Sequence record: PZ379178.1
Reading direction: 5' to 3' (one strand)
DNA length: 46,856 nt
From: a phage
Below are positions 2,717 through 46,340 of this stretch, piece by piece. The notes under the pieces were generated by a model, which was given only the letters and a program-made list of their open reading frames with translations, ran no database searches and was not told the DNA's origin. The translations under genes were made by a program, and so were the position numbers. Positions within the stretch are counted from its first letter, which is position 1. Every line of letters starts with the position of its first letter.

Positions 2717-3136
2717 ATGAAAATCACAGACAAAGGTGATTACCTCGAGTTCTATGGCGGACCGGTGAAGTCATGCCCAAAGGAAGACGATGAACAAATC
2801 TTCTGCTCTGATTGGGTGAAATACAACTATCCGCAGATTGTTTACTGGCACACGATTAACGAAAATAAAAAGAGCATTGGTCAAGCAAGAAAAGACCAAG
2901 CCAAGGGGCTTCTCAAAGGTGTGTCAGACTGCTTATTTCTGATACCTGAGTCATTGCGTGGCGGTTATCCATTTGGCGCCATAGAGTTAAAGAGGGCTGG
3001 TAAAACGCAAGCAAGCCCAGTTAGCAATGAGCAAAAGTCATTCCTAAAAAGCGTAAGTGAATCAGGCGGTTTCGCAGCGGTGGCTTATGGAAGAGAGGGT
3101 TTTCTTGCGGCATTCGCAGAGATGATAAGAAAATAG
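2717..3136 (+). CDS. VRR-NUC-like PD-(D/E)XK nuclease
   Basis: 139 aa; GVSDCLFLIP ... FGAIELKRAGKTQ matches D...E-x-K nuclease core of VRR-NUC proteins; immediately follows helicase. Confidence 0.55.
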   Translation: MKITDKGDYLEFYGGPVKSCPKEDDEQIFCSDWVKYNYPQIVYWHTINENKKSIGQARKDQAKGLLKGVSDCLFLIPESLRGGYPFGAIELKRAGKTQASPVSNEQKSFLKSVSESGGFAAVAYGREGFLAAFAEMIRK

Positions 3137-10731: not shown

Positions 10732-10806
10732 GATCTCTTGCTCTCTTTCGTTTCGATGGAGTAAATATACGCCATCCGTGGCGGTGAGTTTTAGCAATTA
10801 GTGCTA
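10732..10806 (-). promoter_or_regulatory. Box-hairpin-leader cassette (minus orientation)
   Basis: Reverse-complement box TAGCACTAATTGCTAAA (10790-10806), hairpin CGCCACGGATGGCG, leader CATCGAAACGAAAGAGAG; precedes ATG 10731. Confidence 0.5.
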
Positions 10807-11548: not shown

Positions 11549-11705
11549 GGGGTGAATGAATGGTGGATGAACTACCATACAAGTTGATTTTGATTCTTGC
11601 TGAGCCAATTTGGATATACACGTTATCGAAGTTATGGTGTGTATATGAGGTGCGCTTCCGAAGAATCATACACGCCTACCACGCTAGATTACGCAATGGT
11701 TACAT

Positions 11706-11762
11706 AATAATATCTATATATATCAACCTTTTACTATATTATTATTATTATTATATATATGT
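11706..11762. repeat. AT-rich (TTA)n element, copy A
   Basis: TAATATCTATATATATCAACCTTTTACT-ATATTATTATTATTATTATATATAT; near-identical copy at 39501-39556. Confidence 0.8.
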
Positions 11763-12027
11763 ATGTATATGGTGTAGATTGGTCGTATGGATGGGTCGAT
11801 AGTTTTTCTATGAAAACTACTAATTTTATCTATATAGATACATATGCATATCCCCGGCGAATCCGCGTAAAATCTTACACAGGGTAATTACACCAGCTAT
11901 AGCTGGGCTGAGAGGTCAAAAAGCGTAACCAATGCAGATATAAACACAACATAACACTTGATAACGCGTATATTCATGATACCATGGTTTCATCTTAACG
12001 AAGAGCAACCAATCAGGAGTAACGAAT

Positions 12028-33874: not shown

Positions 33875-36800
33875 ATGGCACAAATGGTCAAAACAAATGC
33901 GGAGCTATGTGATATGGCGGAAGAAATTAAGATTTATGGAAGTAAGGGCGGACAGCCAAAGCAGCACCAACCTGTAGAGCAGCCTGATAACCTGATATCC
34001 GTAAACAAGGTTAAGGTTTTGCTAGCTGTTTCTGATGGTGAGGTTGATAGCTCATTCTCCCTAAAGGACCTTTACCTTGCTGACGTTCCTGTACAGAACC
34101 AGAATGGCACATACAACTACGAGGGTGTAACGGCAGAGTTTCGCCCTGGCACACAGAGTCAGGATTACATTGCCGGGCTAGAGGGTGCTAACTCGGAAGT
34201 GCAAGTGAACAGGGAGATTAAAAACTCAACTCCTTACATCATTGCTGTTAATAACACCCAGCTATCAGCGATTAGGGTTAAGCTGTTTTGGCCTCGTCTG
34301 ATTAATCAGGAAAGTAACGGAGATCTTAACGGTACCACTTGCGAGTATGCGATTGACCTGTCCGTTGATGGCGCTACATACACTGAGTACACGCGCGGAG
34401 TAGCTAATGGCAAGACAACTAGCGGGTACGACAGAAGTATCAGGGTTAACCTTCCTGCTGAGTTCTCGAGTGCGTTGGTGAGGGTTCGTAAGATCACGGC
34501 AGATTCAGAAAGTTCGACGCTGGTTAACGACATGCAAATTACGACCTATCAGGAAGTAATTGATGCTAAATTCCGCTACCCACTTACAGCGCTGGTTTAC
34601 GTTGAGTTCAGTTCTGACCTCTTCCCTAACGGAATCCCGACGATTTCAATCAAGAAGAAGTGGAAGTTGATTCGCGTTCCGACTAACTACAACCCAGAGA
34701 CAAGGACTTACAGCGGAACCTGGAACGGCACCTTTAAGATGGCGTATTCCAATAACCCGGCGTGGGTTCTTTACGACTTGGTGACGAATCAGCGTTACGG
34801 ACTTGACCAGCGAGAGCTTGGCATTACTATTGATAAGTGGGGTCTGTATGAGGCGGCGCAATTCTGTGACCAGATGGTTCCAGATGGTAAGGGTGGAGTT
34901 GAGCCGCGCTACCTGTGTGATGTTGTCATTCAGCAGAAAGTTGAAGCATATCAGGTAATCCGTGATATTTGCTCTATCTTCCGTGGGCTGACATTCTATG
35001 ACGGCGAGCAGATAGGGATTGTTGTCGATAAGCCGCGTCAACCATCGTACGTATTCACCAATGACAACGTTGTTGATGGATTGTTCAACCGTACATTTGG
35101 TAGCGATAAGTCACTTTACACGGTTGCCAACGTTCAGTTTGATGACGTTGAAAACTCATACCAACAGGATGTTGAGCCAGTATTCGAGTTAGAGGCAACA
35201 AGGCGTTTTGGTTACAACCCGGTCGACCTTACAGCTATTGGATGTACTCGCAGGAGTGAGGCAAACCGCCGCGGGCGCTGGTTATTAAAGACGAACATTC
35301 GCAGCGAGACTATTAGTTTCACTACTGGTCTGGAAGGTATGATTCCAATGATTGGTGAGGTTATTGCAGTTAATGACCAGGCATGGTCTAGCAACTACAC
35401 CCTTAACCTTTCTGGTCGTATCGAGTCAGTAAGTGGGTTGCAAGTTTTTGTGCCATTTAAGATTGATGCTACTGCTGGCGACAGGATTCTAATAAACAAG
35501 CCTGATGGAATGCCAGAGTACAGGACCATTGCATCTGTATCTGAAGATGGTATGACGCTGCAACTTAATACAGCGTTTAGCTTTACTCCTCAGCCTGACA
35601 CAGTATTTGCGATTGATAAGGAAAATCTTGCTCTTCAGCAATATGTTGTGACCGGTATTCAAAAAGCAGACAGCGATGGAGATGATGCGTTTGGTTACAC
35701 GATTACCGCAGTTGAGTACGACCCGAACAAATACGACGAGATTGATTACGGCGTAAACATTCAGGACAGGCCAACTTCAATCGTGGAGCCAGATACATTA
35801 CTGGCACCCGAGAATGTTCAGGTTAGCAGTTACAGTAAGGTTGTTCAGGGTTTATCAGTTGAGACAATGGTAATCACGTGGGACAAGGTTCAGTACGCGA
35901 AAACCTACACGGTCCAGTGGCGCAAGGAGAACGGAAACTGGATTAACGTGCCGCGCACAGCAAGCACAGAGGTTGATATTGAAGGTATCTATGCCGGAAT
36001 TTACCAGGTTCGCGTAAGGGCCGTTTCTGATACTGAAAACGTATCCGCATGGTCTGACATTGTTTCAGTAAGCCTCACAGGCAAGATTGGGACCCCTTCT
36101 TCACCTACAGTAATCACCGCTTCAGATGATGAAATATTCGGCATTAGGGTTAAGTGGGGATTTCCTGAAAACTCAGCCGATACGTCATACACTGAATTGC
36201 AGCAAGTAGCCGACAATGGTGATGGTACTTATACACCAGAGAATGCTAGCCTTCTGACTCTGGTGCCTTACCCGAGTTACGAGTACTGGCATACTACACT
36301 TCCTGCTGGAAAGGTCATCTGGTACAGGGCGCGACTGATTGACAAGATTGGTAACGTCTCACCATGGACTGATTTTGTAAGGGGTATGGCAAGCGATGAT
36401 GTGTCGTCAATCATTGGTGATATTAAGGTTGATATAGAAAACTCAGATGGGTTCAAGTATCTCCAACAGAATGCCATTGAGTCAAACGGAGCTATTCAGG
36501 CGCAAGCGGAATCAATAATTGAGAACGCCCTGGCTAATGATGGTGACGTGCGTAGAATGACGAAGGAAAACGGCAAGAGGAAGGCCGAATTTGTTCAGGC
36601 TGTGAATCTTATCGCCGATGAAGAAAGGGCTCGCGTAGAGGCTCTGACGCAGCTTAAGGCGCAGATTGATGATGAGATTGTAGCTTCATTGACAAGGATT
36701 GATACGGCGCTAGCGGAAGAGACGCAAGCAAGGACCACTGCGGACACTGCTTTATCTGCAAGGCTAGGTGATAATGAGGCTGCGTTAAATGAGAAGTTGG

Positions 36801-37300
36801 ACACTTACGTTACTGCCGATTCAATTGGTGCTCAGTACGGGATTAAACTTGGCCTCAAATACAATGGCGTTGAGTACAGTTCTGGCATGAGTATGGAGCT
36901 AACTGGTTCTGATGGCAATGTTCGTAGTCAGGTCATCTTTGATGCTAACAGGTTAGCAATCAGTAACGGCATTAGCTCTGGATCCGGTCAGTGGTCATTG
37001 CCTTTCGTAGTTGAAGGTAATCAGGTATTCATTCAAAGCGCAGTGATTCAGGATGGTTCAATCACTAACGCGAAGATTGGTAACCGGATTCAATCTAATA
37101 ACTACGTGGCTGGTTCTCAGGGTTGGGCCATTGATAAGTCAGGCAGTGCGGAACTTAACAATGCAACTGTAAGGGGTAGTCTGTACGCAAGTAACGGCAA
37201 CTTTGCGTTTAACGGAACCAACAACACTGTTCAGATTAACAATAATGGAATTACAGTTAATTTACCGAATGGTGGAAGGGTTGTAGTTGGAGTGTGGTAA
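33875..37300 (+). CDS. Host specificity / central tail fiber protein (gpJ-like)
   Basis: 1141 aa, last and largest gene of tail-tip cluster after I-like gene. Confidence 0.75.
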   Translation: MAQMVKTNAELCDMAEEIKIYGSKGGQPKQHQPVEQPDNLISVNKVKVLLAVSDGEVDSSFSLKDLYLADVPVQNQNGTYNYEGVTAEFRPGTQSQDYIAGLEGANSEVQVNREIKNSTPYIIAVNNTQLSAIRVKLFWPRLINQESNGDLNGTTCEYAIDLSVDGATYTEYTRGVANGKTTSGYDRSIRVNLPAEFSSALVRVRKITADSESSTLVNDMQITTYQEVIDAKFRYPLTALVYVEFSSDLFPNGIPTISIKKKWKLIRVPTNYNPETRTYSGTWNGTFKMAYSNNPAWVLYDLVTNQRYGLDQRELGITIDKWGLYEAAQFCDQMVPDGKGGVEPRYLCDVVIQQKVEAYQVIRDICSIFRGLTFYDGEQIGIVVDKPRQPSYVFTNDNVVDGLFNRTFGSDKSLYTVANVQFDDVENSYQQDVEPVFELEATRRFGYNPVDLTAIGCTRRSEANRRGRWLLKTNIRSETISFTTGLEGMIPMIGEVIAVNDQAWSSNYTLNLSGRIESVSGLQVFVPFKIDATAGDRILINKPDGMPEYRTIASVSEDGMTLQLNTAFSFTPQPDTVFAIDKENLALQQYVVTGIQKADSDGDDAFGYTITAVEYDPNKYDEIDYGVNIQDRPTSIVEPDTLLAPENVQVSSYSKVVQGLSVETMVITWDKVQYAKTYTVQWRKENGNWINVPRTASTEVDIEGIYAGIYQVRVRAVSDTENVSAWSDIVSVSLTGKIGTPSSPTVITASDDEIFGIRVKWGFPENSADTSYTELQQVADNGDGTYTPENASLLTLVPYPSYEYWHTTLPAGKVIWYRARLIDKIGNVSPWTDFVRGMASDDVSSIIGDIKVDIENSDGFKYLQQNAIESNGAIQAQAESIIENALANDGDVRRMTKENGKRKAEFVQAVNLIADEERARVEALTQLKAQIDDEIVASLTRIDTALAEETQARTTADTALSARLGDNEAALNEKLDTYVTADSIGAQYGIKLGLKYNGVEYSSGMSMELTGSDGNVRSQVIFDANRLAISNGISSGSGQWSLPFVVEGNQVFIQSAVIQDGSITNAKIGNRIQSNNYVAGSQGWAIDKSGSAELNNATVRGSLYASNGNFAFNGTNNTVQINNNGITVNLPNGGRVVVGVW

Positions 37301-37306
37301 ATGATT

Positions 37307-37330
37307 AGGCCCCTTTCGGGGCCTTTTCTT
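37307..37330. terminator. Bidirectional terminator between J-like gene and minus-strand operon
   Basis: AGGCCCC-TTTC-GGGGCCT followed by TTTTCTTTT; convergent genes end at 37300 and 37331. Confidence 0.65.
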
Positions 37331-38302
37331 TTAGTAGAAGTTTGGTATGAATGGTAGAGCCATTGATATGTTTGTGTCGAATGGGAATTGGGCTCCCGTC
37401 TGCGTTGAGTAGTTCCCTATCACAGTGCCTGGAACTGCCCTTACGGCACCACCAGACATGCATATTCCCTTGTACCTTAAGTTGTTATACCCTCCAGTAA
37501 CTCTTGTTGTAGCGCCGCACCTGAGCAGTGGGAAGAACCCTCCATTTATTGACTGGAAACCATTGGTTATTTGTATAAAGCCACCAAGCACGAACGGTCG
37601 CCTGACGCTTGAAAAAACAATCTGTCCAGAACTATTAGACATTGTGAGTCCTGGGCCAGCTACTGGAGGGTCATTCCTGAATATCACTAACTGTACGTAA
37701 GTACTTGCTGCAACGTCATCTATGCCGCTGTAGTTTATGTTGCGGCACCAAATTGTATTACCGTCGCTCTCCAGAGAAACGTTTGGGTTATCCCATTTAC
37801 CAAATGGAATCCCACTGACTGGTAGTGAGGCGGCGCCGTTAACCTGTATTCCACCAACCCATGCCGCAGACATTAACCGCGAATTGCTTGAAATTGCCAA
37901 AAAGTCAGTTGAGTTCTCAACCAGTATTCCTGGGCTTGATGAAGACGAGGCTGGGAGTATTTCAAAGCAATTTCCAGCAAAGTCAATTATACGACCTCTT
38001 GCGCCATTGAAGTCACTAAGCGTTATCCTGCCAGTTCCGTCATTTACCTTCTGGAACCCGTTCATATAATAAACTTCAGGTACAACATCATAAGCGTCAA
38101 CGTGCACAGCCTTTGTTGGAAGGCAGAATGCTGTTGAGCCTGTGGACATGGTTAAACCAAAATCCCATGATGATGCTGGCGTCGAAAGTCCATTGGTATT
38201 TATTGAGCCAGTCACAGCGGGCGCTCTTAATCCTGCCGTTATTTCCATAGGTGGCCTTCCGTCGTTGAGGTCTATCAATATACCCTGTGGCATTATTTCC
38301 AC
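37331..38302 (-). CDS. Hypothetical Gly/Ser/Asn-rich protein, cotranscribed with lipoprotein gene
   Basis: 323-aa ORF overlapping 3-prime end of 38293..38538 by 10 nt; convergent with J-like gene at bidirectional terminator. Confidence 0.5.
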
Positions 38303-38538
38303 TCCTTAGACCCGTGATCTGCAACTGAACCGCCATAACCTCCACCAGCCTTGCTCTCAATACCAGCGTAGCGCACATCAACTTCACCAGCCGGTACAAT
38401 CACACCATCTTTCCATTTAGCCACGCACACGCCGTTTGCTTGCGTTGCACACCAACCGTCTGGTCGCGGACTAGAAGAGCAACCTACCATCATGATTGCT
38501 GCTGCGGCGATGATTGAAAGTTTGATTAAGTTAGTCAT
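38293..38538 (-). CDS. Small lipoprotein, Cor/Llp-like superinfection-exclusion candidate
   Basis: 81 aa; signal peptide with lipobox MVGC, short mature domain; own promoter box (38606-38622); located next to tail fiber locus. Confidence 0.4.
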
Positions 38539-38622
38539 TTTAGTATTCCCTAGAATGTGTGTTTCGTTTCAATGGAGTAATGATATCTCATCATTGAGAT
38601 TTGTCTTTAGCTATTCGTGCTA
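38539..38622 (-). promoter_or_regulatory. Box-hairpin-leader cassette (minus orientation)
   Basis: Reverse-complement box TAGCACGAATAGCTAAA (38606-38622), hairpin, leader CATTGAAACGAAACACAC; precedes lipoprotein gene ATG 38538. Confidence 0.5.
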
Positions 38623-39291
38623 TTTACTTTCCAGTAACAGCTTAATGTCGATACCAAGTTTATTCTCGATCAATCCGGTCAGTGCGTCCGTCTTTTCTTT
38701 AAGAGCAAAGCATTGCGTTTCATACTTAAACCTTGCTTCCATTTCATCGGAACGTGATGCCCAAGACTGCCGAGCCTCGCAAGCAAGCATATCTAGTTTT
38801 TCATCTGTATTCTTATCCATGAGAAGGATTTCATTGATTCGCTGCTCAGCAACGATTCGCTGACTAAGGTGAGCGTTCTGCGCATTAGCCACACCAAGCA
38901 TCATGCGTGCCTCTTTTAGCTCATCAATACTAACCATCTTGCTGATTACTTCCTGTTGAGTGTTAATGGTTTGCTGCATCTCTTTTAGCTTGTTTAGAAC
39001 CGAACGACGAACAGACTTTGACTCACGCATTCCGACAAGAAGCATTTGCTCCATATTAAGCACTGGTGAGTTGATCGACTTTCTATAACCACCTCTTCCC
39101 TCACTTTTGATTACGAAACTTTCGTAGTCAAACTCAAACCCCTCAATCTCATCCTCTATCCTCTCAACAAAGTCATTGTGTCGAACATCAGATTCACCAG
39201 CAACTAACCTCGCTGGGTTGATAACTTCATTCAAAAACTGATAACTGTTCATTTTCACATCTTCATTTAGTAGAGCTAGGTTCATTTTCAT
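38620..39291 (-). CDS. Rha-like phage regulatory protein (putative)
   Basis: N-terminal SYQFLNEVINPARLVAGESDVRHNDFVERI resembles Rha-family N-domain, coiled-coil C-terminus; start 39291 after AGAGAG SD. Confidence 0.4.
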   Translation of the reverse strand: MKMNLALLNEDVKMNSYQFLNEVINPARLVAGESDVRHNDFVERIEDEIEGFEFDYESFVIKSEGRGGYRKSINSPVLNMEQMLLVGMRESKSVRRSVLNKLKEMQQTINTQQEVISKMVSIDELKEARMMLGVANAQNAHLSQRIVAEQRINEILLMDKNTDEKLDMLACEARQSWASRSDEMEARFKYETQCFALKEKTDALTGLIENKLGIDIKLLLESK

Positions 39292-39380
39292 CTCTCTTTT
39301 TTTATTCTGGCTAAGCACCATTGCCGCCATGCGCACAAATATACCCAAATACTGCATCTTGTCTTTAGCAAATCGTGCTA
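39292..39380 (-). promoter_or_regulatory. Box cassette (minus orientation)
   Basis: Reverse-complement box TAGCACGATTTGCTAAA (39364-39380), TATATT, AAAAAAAGAGAG SD; precedes Rha-like gene. Confidence 0.45.
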
Positions 39381-39500
39381 TTTATCGCAAATTTACCCAT
39401 AAATCATGGTTACGCGTAATCGATGTAACTCGATGTATACCATATGCATCCGCGGGAAATCGTATACGCCTAGTTACGCCAGTTTACGCCATAGTTACAC

Positions 39501-39556
39501 TATAATATCTATATATATCAACCTTTTACTCTTATTATTATTATTATATATATTAC
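39501..39556. repeat. AT-rich (TTA)n element, copy B
   Basis: TAATATCTATATATATCAACCTTTTACT-CTTATTATTATTATTATATATAT; 28-nt core identical to 11708-11735. Confidence 0.8.
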
Positions 39557-39871
39557 TGTGTATATCATGTAACTACTGTTCTGGAGTGTTCCGGTTATAA
39601 TTTTTATATCATGTGATTTTATACAGTATTGCGCAGCACCTATACCTATGCACCCTCCGCTAAAATCGGTATACACGGTATACTCACTATTTACATTGAG
39701 CTATAGCTTGGCTTAAGTGGCGAAAAACGTAACTCATGCCAATGTCTACACGTAGTTACAAAATTATACGCGTATACTTGATTAATTAATAGGTGATACC
39801 AATTGGACTATGCGTTGTGCGTACGGCATCATTAACTCATCGAAAGCACGCAACAATAGAGAGATAGAGAA

Positions 39872-42229: not shown

Positions 42230-42252
42230 AGCCCCTTTCGGGGCTTTTTTTA
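42230..42252. terminator. Bidirectional terminator between SSB and tail fiber genes
   Basis: AGCCCC-TTTC-GGGGCT followed by T7; convergent gene ends 42219 and 42250. Confidence 0.65.
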
Positions 42253-44778
42253 TTGAAGCGCCATCCTTGAGTTGGTAAATATTAAAGCGTCTCTTTGGTT
42301 ATCGAACTCTACAACGAAGTAATCAGCAAGACTTAATACCATACCAGGTAGCCCATTAAGGTTGATATGCAGGTTTGCAGTGCCAGAGACTGAAGCCTGA
42401 GCAACTCCAAATGTGTGAACCCACTTACCGCCCTCAGTGAATACCTTCCCTAAAGATGCACTACCAAAAATACTGATAACACCATCAGCACCACCTTGAA
42501 TTCTGTTTGCAGAGATACCCCAAACATACCATTTGCCAGCGGTTATATTAAAGACACCATTTATCAATTCGTACTGAGCCGCACCACCCAATTCGTAGTA
42601 TCCAGATGATTGCGAGTGTATACCCCTTGTATCAGAACCTTCACTTGCCGACCCTGTTCCACCAAAGTTGTTCCCACCAGTACCAAAAGGCTTCCTGACT
42701 AAAACAGTTCCGGAATCAGGGTTAAAAACTCGACCTTTAGTAACATATCCTCTAACAGATAAGTCAGATGTACCCGTTATCTTGGCTGTCTGTGATACCA
42801 GTGACTCAACTATAACGTTTGATGTTGAAGAGCCATTCAGGTATGCATCCTTAGCAAAAATAATACTGTTTGAATCAAGAGAGAAACTTTGATGCCCGTC
42901 AGCGTTATCAAACCTGCAACCGTAAGTAATAAGGTTTGAGTTCGACAACTCAATGTTATTAATGTAGGAATGCTCAGCAAAGAAAACAGACGTATCGATG
43001 AGCTTCAAAACCCTTGGGAGTTCAGCTCCCTCACCTACGTTAATTGCCCCACCAGTTGCTATCGCTTCAAACCATACGTTAGACAATCCGCAAGGTGATG
43101 TTGGGCAATCTCCAGGTTTATTCTTTAACCTTATACCGCCGCCAGCAGAGGCCTCCATTATTGAATCCCTAATCCACCACCCACCAATTCCTCCAGCGCC
43201 AGGGTTCGTTGCGCTACTTGTGCTTGTCGCATCTAGCATTACTGAATATTGAGAGATTGTATCTGAGTGGTATCCGTATAAAGTGTCCGCTCCTATATGC
43301 ATTTCGTCATGAGCTTTTGCTCGATACCCGTAATTCGCATTTCTAATACTTACGTTTCTGTAGGTATTTCCAATGTTGCCAGCATTTTTCCTTATACCAA
43401 CATCCAGGTCATTGAAGTAAAGCCTATCCAATACAACCCTTCCAGCATAAGGGCCATCCGGGAATTGAAAGCCGTTATTACCTTGTATTGCAGTACCTGT
43501 AAACTGCAAATCCGATAAATGCTTTTGCCTCCAGTGCGGAACCGATAGCGTTGAGGTGAGTCCGGTTTCAAAAGGTTTAACACTTATTACGGTATTATAT
43601 CCAGAGCCTGATATGTTCCTGCCAGCAAAGGAGTAGTTATTACTCTCATAAGTTCCCGGGCTTATAACTACCGACCCGCCATCGCCAGCGGCTTCTATTG
43701 CTGAAGATATTGAGCCGCTATAGCTTGATGTGCTTTTTGAATCTGTATTTAAAATTGATGATAATTCGCTCTTTGAGTAAACATCAAGGTTGGTTCTTGC
43801 TTCTGCTTTATCTGCAACATCAGATAAATTCAATGATTTTTGAAAAGTCTCATTTTTTGAGTAAACATCAAGCAAGCCTCTTACTCGCTGGGCGCTAGCG
43901 CCGCCAACCTTACTTCCTGATGCGACATAAAGAGCCTCTCTTGAATAGTAAGTTTTGTTTGGTGCCGTGCCAGTCTGAGTTAAATCAATCAACCTGTACG
44001 TATTATCGGATCCGGTTGATGCTGACACTTGTATGTTCTTAACACCAGTAATCCCCCTTGATGACTTAACCTCAATCGCACAAAGCGTGCTATCGGAGTA
44101 GGTTATATTTATCACCTCTGGAGCGTTGATCATTGCTGACTTTTGGCATAGGTATCTAGCTCCTGATTTGAAATCAAACGTATTCCAGTCAAGTTCTGTC
44201 AACTGAGGTGTAAACGAGCCACCGATACCCATATTGGCAAGAGTTACCATTGTGCCAGCATCACCAGCACTATTAATTGCCTCAATAGTAGCATCTCTCG
44301 CTGATGTGGTTGTATCCCTTGCGCTAACGGCAGTAGCGGCGCTCTCTGCGGCAGCAATCTGGCTAGCTAAAGACTCGGCAGCCCCTGTTACTGATTGGTT
44401 TGCTAATTGCTCGAAGCGAGGCCAATCGAAATTATCTTGCCCGATAAATTGCAGCAAACTTTCAATAGAAGTCTCCTTTGACTGATAGTAACGCAGAGTC
44501 TCAGCAACATCCTGAGCTAAACCCTGAACGGTAATGCCATCGTGAGCAAGAATCGCGTAACCAGTTCCGGCAGGAACAGTTTCAGAATTAGGGTTGTAAA
44601 CATTAATCTGAGTGTCGCTGATGATTTCAGAGATGGTATAAATTTTAAGTGGACTGGTTTTAAAAATAATGGTTGCACCTACACGAATAAGTGTAAGTGG
44701 TGCTTTCCATGTTGTCCGGACGCCAGTAACCTCGCCATTTGCGGCTAGCGACGCTGTTCCTAAGTCATAAATTGCCAT
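42250..44778 (-). CDS. Tail fiber / tailspike-like protein
   Basis: About 842 aa; central region with repetitive Asn/Gly/Ser-rich beta-helix-like segments; start ATG 44778 preferred over GTG 44808. Confidence 0.6.
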   Translation of the reverse strand: MAIYDLGTASLAANGEVTGVRTTWKAPLTLIRVGATIIFKTSPLKIYTISEIISDTQINVYNPNSETVPAGTGYAILAHDGITVQGLAQDVAETLRYYQSKETSIESLLQFIGQDNFDWPRFEQLANQSVTGAAESLASQIAAAESAATAVSARDTTTSARDATIEAINSAGDAGTMVTLANMGIGGSFTPQLTELDWNTFDFKSGARYLCQKSAMINAPEVINITYSDSTLCAIEVKSSRGITGVKNIQVSASTGSDNTYRLIDLTQTGTAPNKTYYSREALYVASGSKVGGASAQRVRGLLDVYSKNETFQKSLNLSDVADKAEARTNLDVYSKSELSSILNTDSKSTSSYSGSISSAIEAAGDGGSVVISPGTYESNNYSFAGRNISGSGYNTVISVKPFETGLTSTLSVPHWRQKHLSDLQFTGTAIQGNNGFQFPDGPYAGRVVLDRLYFNDLDVGIRKNAGNIGNTYRNVSIRNANYGYRAKAHDEMHIGADTLYGYHSDTISQYSVMLDATSTSSATNPGAGGIGGWWIRDSIMEASAGGGIRLKNKPGDCPTSPCGLSNVWFEAIATGGAINVGEGAELPRVLKLIDTSVFFAEHSYINNIELSNSNLITYGCRFDNADGHQSFSLDSNSIIFAKDAYLNGSSTSNVIVESLVSQTAKITGTSDLSVRGYVTKGRVFNPDSGTVLVRKPFGTGGNNFGGTGSASEGSDTRGIHSQSSGYYELGGAAQYELINGVFNITAGKWYVWGISANRIQGGADGVISIFGSASLGKVFTEGGKWVHTFGVAQASVSGTANLHINLNGLPGMVLSLADYFVVEFDNQRDALIFTNSRMALQ

Positions 44779-44802
44779 TGTGTAAAGTCTCCATTTGTAA
44801 AG

Positions 44803-44819
44803 TAGCACTAATTGCTAAA
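44803..44819. promoter_or_regulatory. Isolated box copy TAGCACTAATTGCTAAA with ambiguous orientation
   Basis: Box overlaps tail fiber 5-prime region (start 44778, minus) and lies beside primase terminator hairpin 44853-44866; no downstream leader on plus strand. Confidence 0.35.
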
Positions 44820-45792: not shown

Positions 45793-45860
45793 AGTTACCT
45801 CCATAAACAATAAAGGCACTATACACAATGTATAGCGCCACTGTTTATCAATTCGTGCTA
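45793..45860 (-). promoter_or_regulatory. Box-hairpin-leader cassette (minus orientation)
   Basis: Reverse-complement box TAGCACGAATTGATAAA (45844-45860), palindrome CTATACATTGTGTATAG, GGAGG SD; precedes primase ATG 45792. Confidence 0.5.
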
Positions 45861-46340
45861 TTTCCCTTGCTCTTTATCTTTTCGTGCTGCTTCGTTAGCG
45901 GCCTTAATCTTGCGCCATGAGCGACACTCTGGTTTAGTTGCTAGCTCAGCCTCAGTAACAACACGCAGCATATGACGCTTCTTGCAACGTAGAGTTAGCG
46001 GTTTCCCGTTACCGTCGAATTGCAGATCTGGTCGGCAGAATGTAGCGCGAAAACCTTCTCCATTTCGCTTATAGTAGTTGTGCGACAACTGAGCGCCACG
46101 CGCAGAAATCATCCCGCGATCAAACCATTGCTCTACAGTCTGGTGAGATACATTTAACTGCTTGGCGATATTGGCCTTCGTGCCGTAGAAATCAAGAACC
46201 ATCTCCAGACGAGCTCGTAGCCCAGCCTTTACTTCATCTTTCAATACGTAGTAGCCTGACGGTCGTTTGCGCTGTTTCTTGTCTTGCGTGCGGATGGTTC
46301 CGTTATTGCCGTTGATAGTTCGCTTGTCAATTTCACACAT
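45858..46340 (-). CDS. HTH-type DNA-binding protein (putative regulator)
   Basis: 160 aa, basic; TKANIAKQLNVSHQTVEQW resembles helix-turn-helix. Confidence 0.45.
   Translation of the reverse strand: MCEIDKRTINGNNGTIRTQDKKQRKRPSGYYVLKDEVKAGLRARLEMVLDFYGTKANIAKQLNVSHQTVEQWFDRGMISARGAQLSHNYYKRNGEGFRATFCRPDLQFDGNGKPLTLRCKKRHMLRVVTEAELATKPECRSWRKIKAANEAARKDKEQGK

Follow-up and report, generated by a model that had tools for sequence, protein, structure and literature searches.

A probable LptD-type receptor-binding protein gene coupled to a predicted superinfection-exclusion lipoprotein gene in a Braunvirinae genome

The 46,856-nucleotide stretch of DNA analyzed here (PZ379178.1, referred to below as the window) represents an essentially complete genome of the Braunvirinae (Drexlerviridae), and its closest record was phage ES (with AN_ECEAS), at 91 to 94% identity across 60 to 88% of the query. 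In the list of open reading frames (ORFs), the minus strand carried an 81-aa frame at 38293..38538 and a 323-aa frame at 37331..38302, both converging on a lambda-J-type gene on the plus strand (33875..37300). The 1,141-aa product of the J gene is a gpJ-like central tail fiber or tail tip protein, recognized through Pfam FNIII-A_GpJ, Phage-tail_3, and Phage_Tail_Tip (PF24801, PF13550, and PF09327) and PHROG 31 ("central tail fiber J"). The stop codons of J and of the 323-aa frame lie 30 nt apart, confirming the convergent operon of the original prediction, and the gap is filled by a GC-rich 7-bp hairpin (37307..37324, AGGCCCC-TTTC-GGGGCCT) found by both a terminator scan and RNA folding. Folded as the minus strand, this hairpin gave −17.1 kcal/mol (z = −4.9). 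Its T-tail is good on the plus strand (TTTTCTTTT), as in an intrinsic terminator, and weak on the minus strand (UAAUCAUUU); phage CEB_EC3a has a terminator annotated at the equivalent place. No Rfam family matched at the gathering threshold between 37200 and 39900. Upstream of the 81-aa ORF lies an ANT-like gene with its own promoter-like box, and three plus-strand ORFs (37425..37700, 37737..38069, and 38492..38863), which sit opposite conserved coding sequence, were taken as shadows.

The 81-aa ORF encodes the precursor of a predicted superinfection-exclusion lipoprotein orthologous to Rtp45 of phage Rtp. A signal peptide occupies residues 1 to 19, with Lys in the n-region and a 13-residue Kyte-Doolittle maximum of 2.41, and the MVGC lipobox described earlier was found as M-V-G followed by Cys20, the predicted lipidated residue. 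The residues after the Cys are SSS, and sorting to the outer membrane is expected from the absence of Asp at +2. Over all 80 positions of the model (1 to 80), the protein matched the Pfam "Phage lipoprotein family" (PF24052) at 136.9 bits (E = 2.2e-40; cutoff, 27 bits). It also matched phrog_4281 (PHROG, E = 6.9e-37) and the structure of Rtp45 itself (9RPS chain D, listed as 9rps_D; E = 5.5e-38). By BLASTP, identity was 80% to Rtp45 and 86% to OzMSK_039, and the start and lipobox were the same as in Rtp45 except for one residue after the Cys. Three cysteines (Cys20, Cys30, and Cys38) were invariant in six phages, and residues 30 to 35 read CATQAN where Rtp45 has CATQAS, a five-of-six identity that describes sequence conservation only.

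Downstream, the start codon of the partner gene needed correction. The GTG at 38302, which yields the listed 323-aa product and a 10-nt overlap with the lipoprotein gene, is itself the final base of an AAGGAG Shine-Dalgarno sequence read within the 3′ end of the lipoprotein gene (38302..38307, minus strand). The AAGGAG precedes the ATG at 38293 by 8 nt, and this ATG shares a TAATG (38291 to 38295) with the lipoprotein stop codon. In phage OzMSK, a ribosome binding site is annotated at the position equivalent to AAGGAG, and in Rtp, OzMSK, ES, CEB_EC3a, and HK578 a 1-nt overlap is annotated and the partner proteins begin with MPQG or MAQG. Because of the Shine-Dalgarno spacing, the TAATG, and the starts of the relatives, the GTG start was rejected, and the partner is most likely a 320-aa protein translated from ATG 38293 (37331..38293, minus strand) with a 1-nt overlap. 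The overlap of the two genes thus stands as originally described, with the 10-nt length applying to the ORF list. Translational coupling of the two genes, as first proposed, holds with the corrected start, as judged from the TAATG and the internal AAGGAG.

The 320-aa product is best read as an LptD-type receptor-binding protein (RBP), orthologous to OzMSK_038 and homologous to both Rtp44 and the RBP of Oekolampad. It had been described as rich in Gly, Ser, and Asn and free of transmembrane segments, and both features were recovered: Gly, Ser, and Asn make up 11.9%, 10.0%, and 7.5% of residues, and hydropathy in 19-residue windows peaked at 1.11, indicating no transmembrane segment. It had also been said to carry no recognizable motif, which did not survive comparison with Pfam, where PF20051 (DUF6453) matched at 457.6 bits (E = 2.3e-137; cutoff, 25 bits). 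Residues 2 to 320 aligned with residues 2 to 321 of PDB entry 9rpt_C, labeled "tail fiber protein," which is the Oekolampad RBP of structures 9RPT, 9RPW, and 9RQI (E = 5.1e-67). Full-length identities by BLASTP were 93% to OzMSK_038, 40% to Rtp44, and 99.4% to the phage ES homologue, so that the protein exceeds 30% identity at about full coverage to RBPs of LptD-dependent phages. Homologues were present in 425 phage records, of which 408 covered at least 80% of the query. The earlier suggestion of a receptor-binding or exclusion component can therefore be narrowed to receptor binding, as expected for a homologue of a tail-tip RBP. A single-sequence AlphaFold2 model of the 320-aa protein (pLDDT 30.6, pTM 0.19) was unusable for fold, and an architecture of two lectin-like beta-sandwiches, with loops at the tip and the N terminus at the base, is predicted through the full-length match to chain C of 9RPT. 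Taken together, these matches predict a tail-tip receptor binder for LptD.

Expression of the gene pair appears to depend on a repeated sequence that is characteristic of the genome. The box ATAGCACGAATTGCTAAA occurred in 13 copies at three or fewer mismatches in the window, against 0.07 expected, and in about 20 copies when four mismatches were allowed. Behind almost every copy come a spacer of about 20 nt, a hexamer resembling TATAAT, the conserved leader TACTCCATCGAAACGA, a Shine-Dalgarno sequence, and an ATG, which lies 80 to 88 nt from where the box begins. In front of the lipoprotein gene, the box ATAGCACGAATAGCTAAA (38623..38606, minus strand) overlaps the TAG stop codon of the upstream gene and lies 68 nt from the ATG. 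It leads into a −35-like AAGACA (38607..38602), a 16-nt spacer, a −10 hexamer TATCAT (38585..38580), a conserved leader (TACTCCATTGAAACGAAAC), and a weak Shine-Dalgarno sequence, which together form the putative promoter module of a bicistronic operon (38539..38623, minus strand). When the whole 31-nt promoter stretch was considered as a repeat, it proved unique in the window; the 18-nt box and short leader alone recur. The box was described previously as a 21-nt repeat (aaATAGCACnnnTTGnTAAAA) of TLS, T1, Rtp, and Rogue1, where it precedes start codons by about 76 nt (PMC11447400). The box assigned to the lipoprotein in the original prediction was thus found in place, and its role as a promoter is inferred from its setting.

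Rtp, OzMSK, and ES carry the same promoter module ahead of their lipoprotein genes despite different upstream neighbors, these being a DNA methylase gene in OzMSK and nothing in Rtp or ES. Since the module is kept when the neighbors change, the gene pair appears to be a self-contained transcription unit. The box is palindromic (TAGCA-N5-TGCTA) and heads about 15 to 20 other units besides this operon. We consider it unlikely, though conceivable, that it serves as the operator of a phage helix-turn-helix regulator. A 160-aa protein encoded at 45858..46340 could be the candidate box-binding regulator, which would then control when the coupled genes for the exclusion factor and the RBP are expressed.

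The comparisons also bear on how the RBP might be joined to the tail. The last ~44 residues of J (37166 to 37297) were 75% identical to the J protein of the Dhillonvirus HK578, compared to 41% for the preceding ~100 residues. The pattern was reversed against T1, which has an FhuA-type locus, with 28% identity in the C-terminal 44 residues and 57% in the upstream part. On the RBP side, the N-terminal 25 residues were 68 to 76% identical in phages where the remainder of the RBP was only 17 to 43% identical, and for the J C-terminal 44 residues and the RBP N-terminal 25 residues taken together the range in such phages was 68 to 81%. These patterns support, but do not prove, docking of the RBP N terminus on the J tip. 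They likewise support, without proving, co-inheritance of the J tip with LptD-type RBPs, in which case J tip, RBP, and lipoprotein would move as one cassette.

The order of lipoprotein gene, 1-nt overlap, RBP gene, and convergent J was kept in Rtp, OzMSK, ES, CEB_EC3a, and HK578, and the sequence comparisons place the window pair in the Rtp44/Rtp45 families, closest to the OzMSK/Rogue1 subgroup. Phage Rtp, also in the Braunvirinae, shares the J gene, the hairpin, the opposite-strand RBP, the overlapping lipoprotein gene, and the box promoter. Its lipoprotein has the same MMVGC lipobox and Cys30/Cys38 pair as the window protein. Rtp differs in the low identity and shorter length of Rtp44 (311 aa versus 320 aa), in the absence of the ANT-like gene with its own box that is inserted upstream in the window, and in the lipoprotein C terminus, where Rtp45 reads K-----GSSG and the window protein has a 5-residue Gly-rich insertion. 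OzMSK (vB_ecoS_OzMSK, also called Msk or 7WV) is closer, with RBP and lipoprotein of the same lengths as in the window (320 and 81 aa), although the methylase takes the place of the ANT-like gene and the remaining genome sequence at this locus shows only about 81% identity. Oekolampad (Bas18, Dhillonvirus) belongs to another genus, and its RBP shares the family, full-length homology, and N-terminal motif with the window RBP while the loops have substantially diverged. The Oekolampad superinfection-exclusion lipoprotein is 35% identical to Rtp45 (PMC12685063).

Published work from 2021 to 2025 already covers the module, the receptor, and the way both proteins act at the structural level. Maffei et al. 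(2021) used resistant lptD mutants to tie this allele downstream of gpJ to LptD, and predicted LptD to be the receptor of Rtp as well (PMC8594841). OzMSK cannot infect two lptD (loop) deletion mutants, a dependence shown for the phage rather than the isolated protein, and an engineered deletion of extracellular loop 11 (EL11) also protected BL21(DE3) (PMC13035648). According to Dunbar et al. (2025), the Oekolampad RBP inserts deep into the extracellular side of open-state LptDE, contacting EL3-5 and EL11 of LptD over an interface of ~1,700 Å2, and its Gln299 hydrogen-bonds Ser350 of LptD (PMC12685063). Gln298 of the window RBP aligns with this residue. The window RBP is about 40% identical to the Oekolampad protein; with loops diverged to this degree, RBPs of the OzMSK/Rogue1 type could conceivably meet LptD in another state or binding pose, though this seems unlikely. 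The LptD point mutations D352Y and Y671N each abolished both binding and infection (PMC12685063). From the opposite side, cryo-electron microscopy of Rtp45 (9RPS) placed the lipoprotein on the periplasmic face of LptDE, sandwiched by LptE and LptM, with a strand at residues 30 to 35 pairing with LptD residues 318 to 323 and a disulfide between Cys30 and Cys38. The Rtp45 hairpin extends up the LptD lumen and displaces EL4 by up to 20 Å, an arrangement incompatible with RBP binding (PMC12685063).

Gene anatomy, family membership, and near-identity to characterized proteins are direct observations in the window, and the published mechanism can be carried over to the window proteins because they are 80 to 93% identical to characterized homologues. 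By this homology, the gene pair is very probably the module with which small T1-like siphophages recognize their hosts through LptD and exclude superinfecting phages. Binding to LptDE, the way exclusion works, and the dependence of infection on LptD are predicted from published work on homologues. Under this model, a two-gene minus-strand operon would be read from the family-typical box promoter and end at the hairpin shared with J. The lipoprotein would be cut by signal peptidase II at Cys20, tethered to the outer-membrane inner leaflet, and bound to the periplasmic side of the LptDE lipopolysaccharide translocon, where its hairpin would pass through the LptD lumen and displace EL4. With EL4 displaced, docking of the phage RBP would be blocked, shielding the infected cell from superinfection and sparing progeny from wasteful adsorption to debris. 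The RBP itself would be made by translational coupling via the TAATG and internal AAGGAG, its conserved N terminus would probably dock noncovalently on the C-terminal tip of the J-like fiber, and its distal loops would enter LptD from outside (EL3-5 and EL11), triggering irreversible adsorption.

This model has consequences for annotation and for host range. The phage is expected to use LptD, a conserved and essential protein of the outer membrane, as its terminal receptor and to show cross-exclusion with other phages that use LptD. Host resistance is predicted to arise through changes in LptD loops EL4, EL5, and EL11. The labels "membrane protein," "Cor," and "hypothetical protein" carried by many relatives are also corrected.

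A very unlikely alternative is that the families are as assigned but that RBPs of the OzMSK/Rogue1 type use another or a second receptor, which the lipoprotein would block instead. DUF6453 homologues at about 30% identity (Klebsiella Webervirus) and about 25% identity (podophages of the genus Kuravirus) come from phages without an established receptor, and Bas01 needs NupG in addition to LptD, acting through a J domain (2026 preprint). The RBP loops are also poorly conserved between subgroups, and three groups of loop sequences have been proposed perhaps to bind LptD slightly differently (PMC13035648). Against another receptor, the closest characterized RBP, at 93% identity, belongs to a phage blocked by two independent lptD deletions, and the lipoprotein is 80% identical to one solved on LptDE. 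RBP families at this locus (>30% identity, >99% coverage) track the receptor (2026 preprint), with no exception so far.

Less probable still is a lipoprotein of the Cor type, inactivating FhuA in the manner of the T1, phi80, and N15 proteins and accompanied by a nonvirion accessory exclusion or membrane protein. In T1, the cor gene lies at the matching place in the genome and likewise converges on the J region; the partner is labeled "membrane protein / moron" in RefSeq and PHROG; and T1 Cor gave a subthreshold score on the PF24052 model (17.7 bits; cutoff, 27 bits). Similarity to Cor was limited to the signal peptide, however. The phrog_1119 match (E = 0.019) spanned residues 6 to 34, which correspond to the signal peptide, and BLASTP against T1 Cor aligned 20 residues of signal peptide and lipobox. 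The partner lacks the hydrophobic segment of a membrane protein, and Wietzorrek et al. are said to have found in 2006 that Rtp infects independently of FhuA and TonB. In family scans alone, Pfam (E ≤ 1) and PHROG (E ≤ 0.1) returned PF24052, phrog_4281, and the weak Cor match, with no hit to an Llp family. The "Cor-like" label given earlier is therefore apt for the kind of protein, a receptor-blocking exclusion lipoprotein, and not for the Cor or Llp family or for FhuA as the receptor. In the T5 pb5/Llp system and in the Cor phages, as in the LptD-directed pair, an RBP at the tip of the central fiber is combined with an outer-membrane lipoprotein that blocks the receptor from the periplasm. The receptor there is FhuA rather than LptD, and the searches above gave no family link at the sequence level. 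Long-range allostery in a TonB-dependent transporter is the mode of action of Llp; Rtp45 instead pushes EL4 of LptD physically aside. The llp and pb5 genes of T5 are separate transcription units, unlike the coupled genes found here.

That the two ORFs are chance frames or a decayed, functionless remnant is scarcely credible: the ORF list is mechanical, but both frames match families over their full length (E of 1e-40 to 1e-137), RBP homologues are as widespread as described above, and the Shine-Dalgarno sequence, overlap, and promoter module are conserved.

The two proteins of the LptD-directed pair differ in how well they are conserved. Across six phages the lipoprotein was 72 to 95% identical, compared to RBP identities as low as 41%, and a steadier lipoprotein is in line with less variation on the periplasmic surface of LptD than in its extracellular loops. 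A Gly-rich insertion of 4 to 5 residues in the lipoprotein was present in the four compared phages with an OzMSK-type RBP and absent in Rtp and HK578, both of which have an Rtp44-type RBP.

The C-terminal ~44 amino acids of J, the gpJ-like central tail fiber (37166 to 37297), and the N-terminal ~25 amino acids of the LptD-type receptor-binding protein (RBP) (38219 to 38293) were conserved together across phages, while the remaining J tip and RBP sequences had diverged in the phages that kept these two segments. This pattern of sequence conservation suggests that the two ends form the docking interface. In Citrobacter phage HCF1, the DUF6453-type RBP was reduced to its first 39 codons (64% identical; L004, 3001 to 3117), flanked by a lipoprotein-sized ORF and a long J gene (1,238 amino acids), and this remnant looks like a vestige from a shift of receptor recognition to a J extension. 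More distant RBP homologs were found in Kuravirus ES17 (about 25% identity; L005, 3947 to 4978), where the gene lies in the tail fiber cluster of these 75-kb podophages, and in Klebsiella Webervirus FZ10 (about 30% identity; L007, 1501 to 2457), where the gene directly follows J on the same strand and has no annotated lipoprotein with it.

The position just upstream of the operon encoding the lipoprotein and RBP is a variable accessory-gene (moron) slot, since the ANT-like gene found there (38620 to 39357, minus strand; phrog_8235, "anti-repressor") is missing from phages ES and Rtp, and OzMSK has a DNA methylase in its place. This ANT-like gene has its own copy of the repeated promoter-like box (39364 to 39381, minus strand). 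Because only 7 nt separate this box from the start in the ORF list (39357), the true start is probably Met23 or Met25 (39291 or 39285), after AGAGAG.

Within the box, ATAGCACGAATTGCTAAA, lies a perfect palindrome, TAGCA-N5-TGCTA; phages TLS, T1, and Rtp are already known to carry this repeat (PMC11447400). Examples of copies throughout the window lie at 3133, 6560, 13168, 13851, 15196, 18898, and 41038 and, on the minus strand, at 10790, 38606, 39364, and 45844. The box, a −10 hexamer, and the leader TACTCCATCGAAACGA jointly make up a ~70-nt putative promoter module ahead of most transcription units. One plus-strand copy (44802 to 44819) is directed toward genes on the minus strand, with the hairpin AAAAAACCTCCCGAAGGAGGTT after it; this copy may be a promoter module of an antisense or orphan type, or else a piece of a bidirectional element at the end of an 852-amino-acid ORF (42250 to 44808).

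Inverted repeats of the box type were reportedly proposed in the Rtp genome paper as sites for the regulator Rtp52. In the window, a candidate box-binding protein is a 160-amino-acid helix-turn-helix (HTH) protein (45858 to 46340, minus strand; phrog_2856, "transcriptional regulator," E = 1e-83) with a subthreshold Pfam match to a Cro-like HTH. Its gene adjoins an ORF standing where T1 has its primase gene, and T1 carries the "transcriptional regulator" ST23 at the corresponding place beside the primase position.

Two related AT-rich noncoding stretches (39476 to 39751 and 11681 to 11947; 76% identity over 96 nt and 72% over 53 nt) both have GTTAC motifs that recur, as well as (ATT)n/(TA)n runs. 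The copy at 39.5 kb, which could be an origin or a regulatory region, lies within a divergent intergenic region of ~490 nt and was also found in Rtp and ES.
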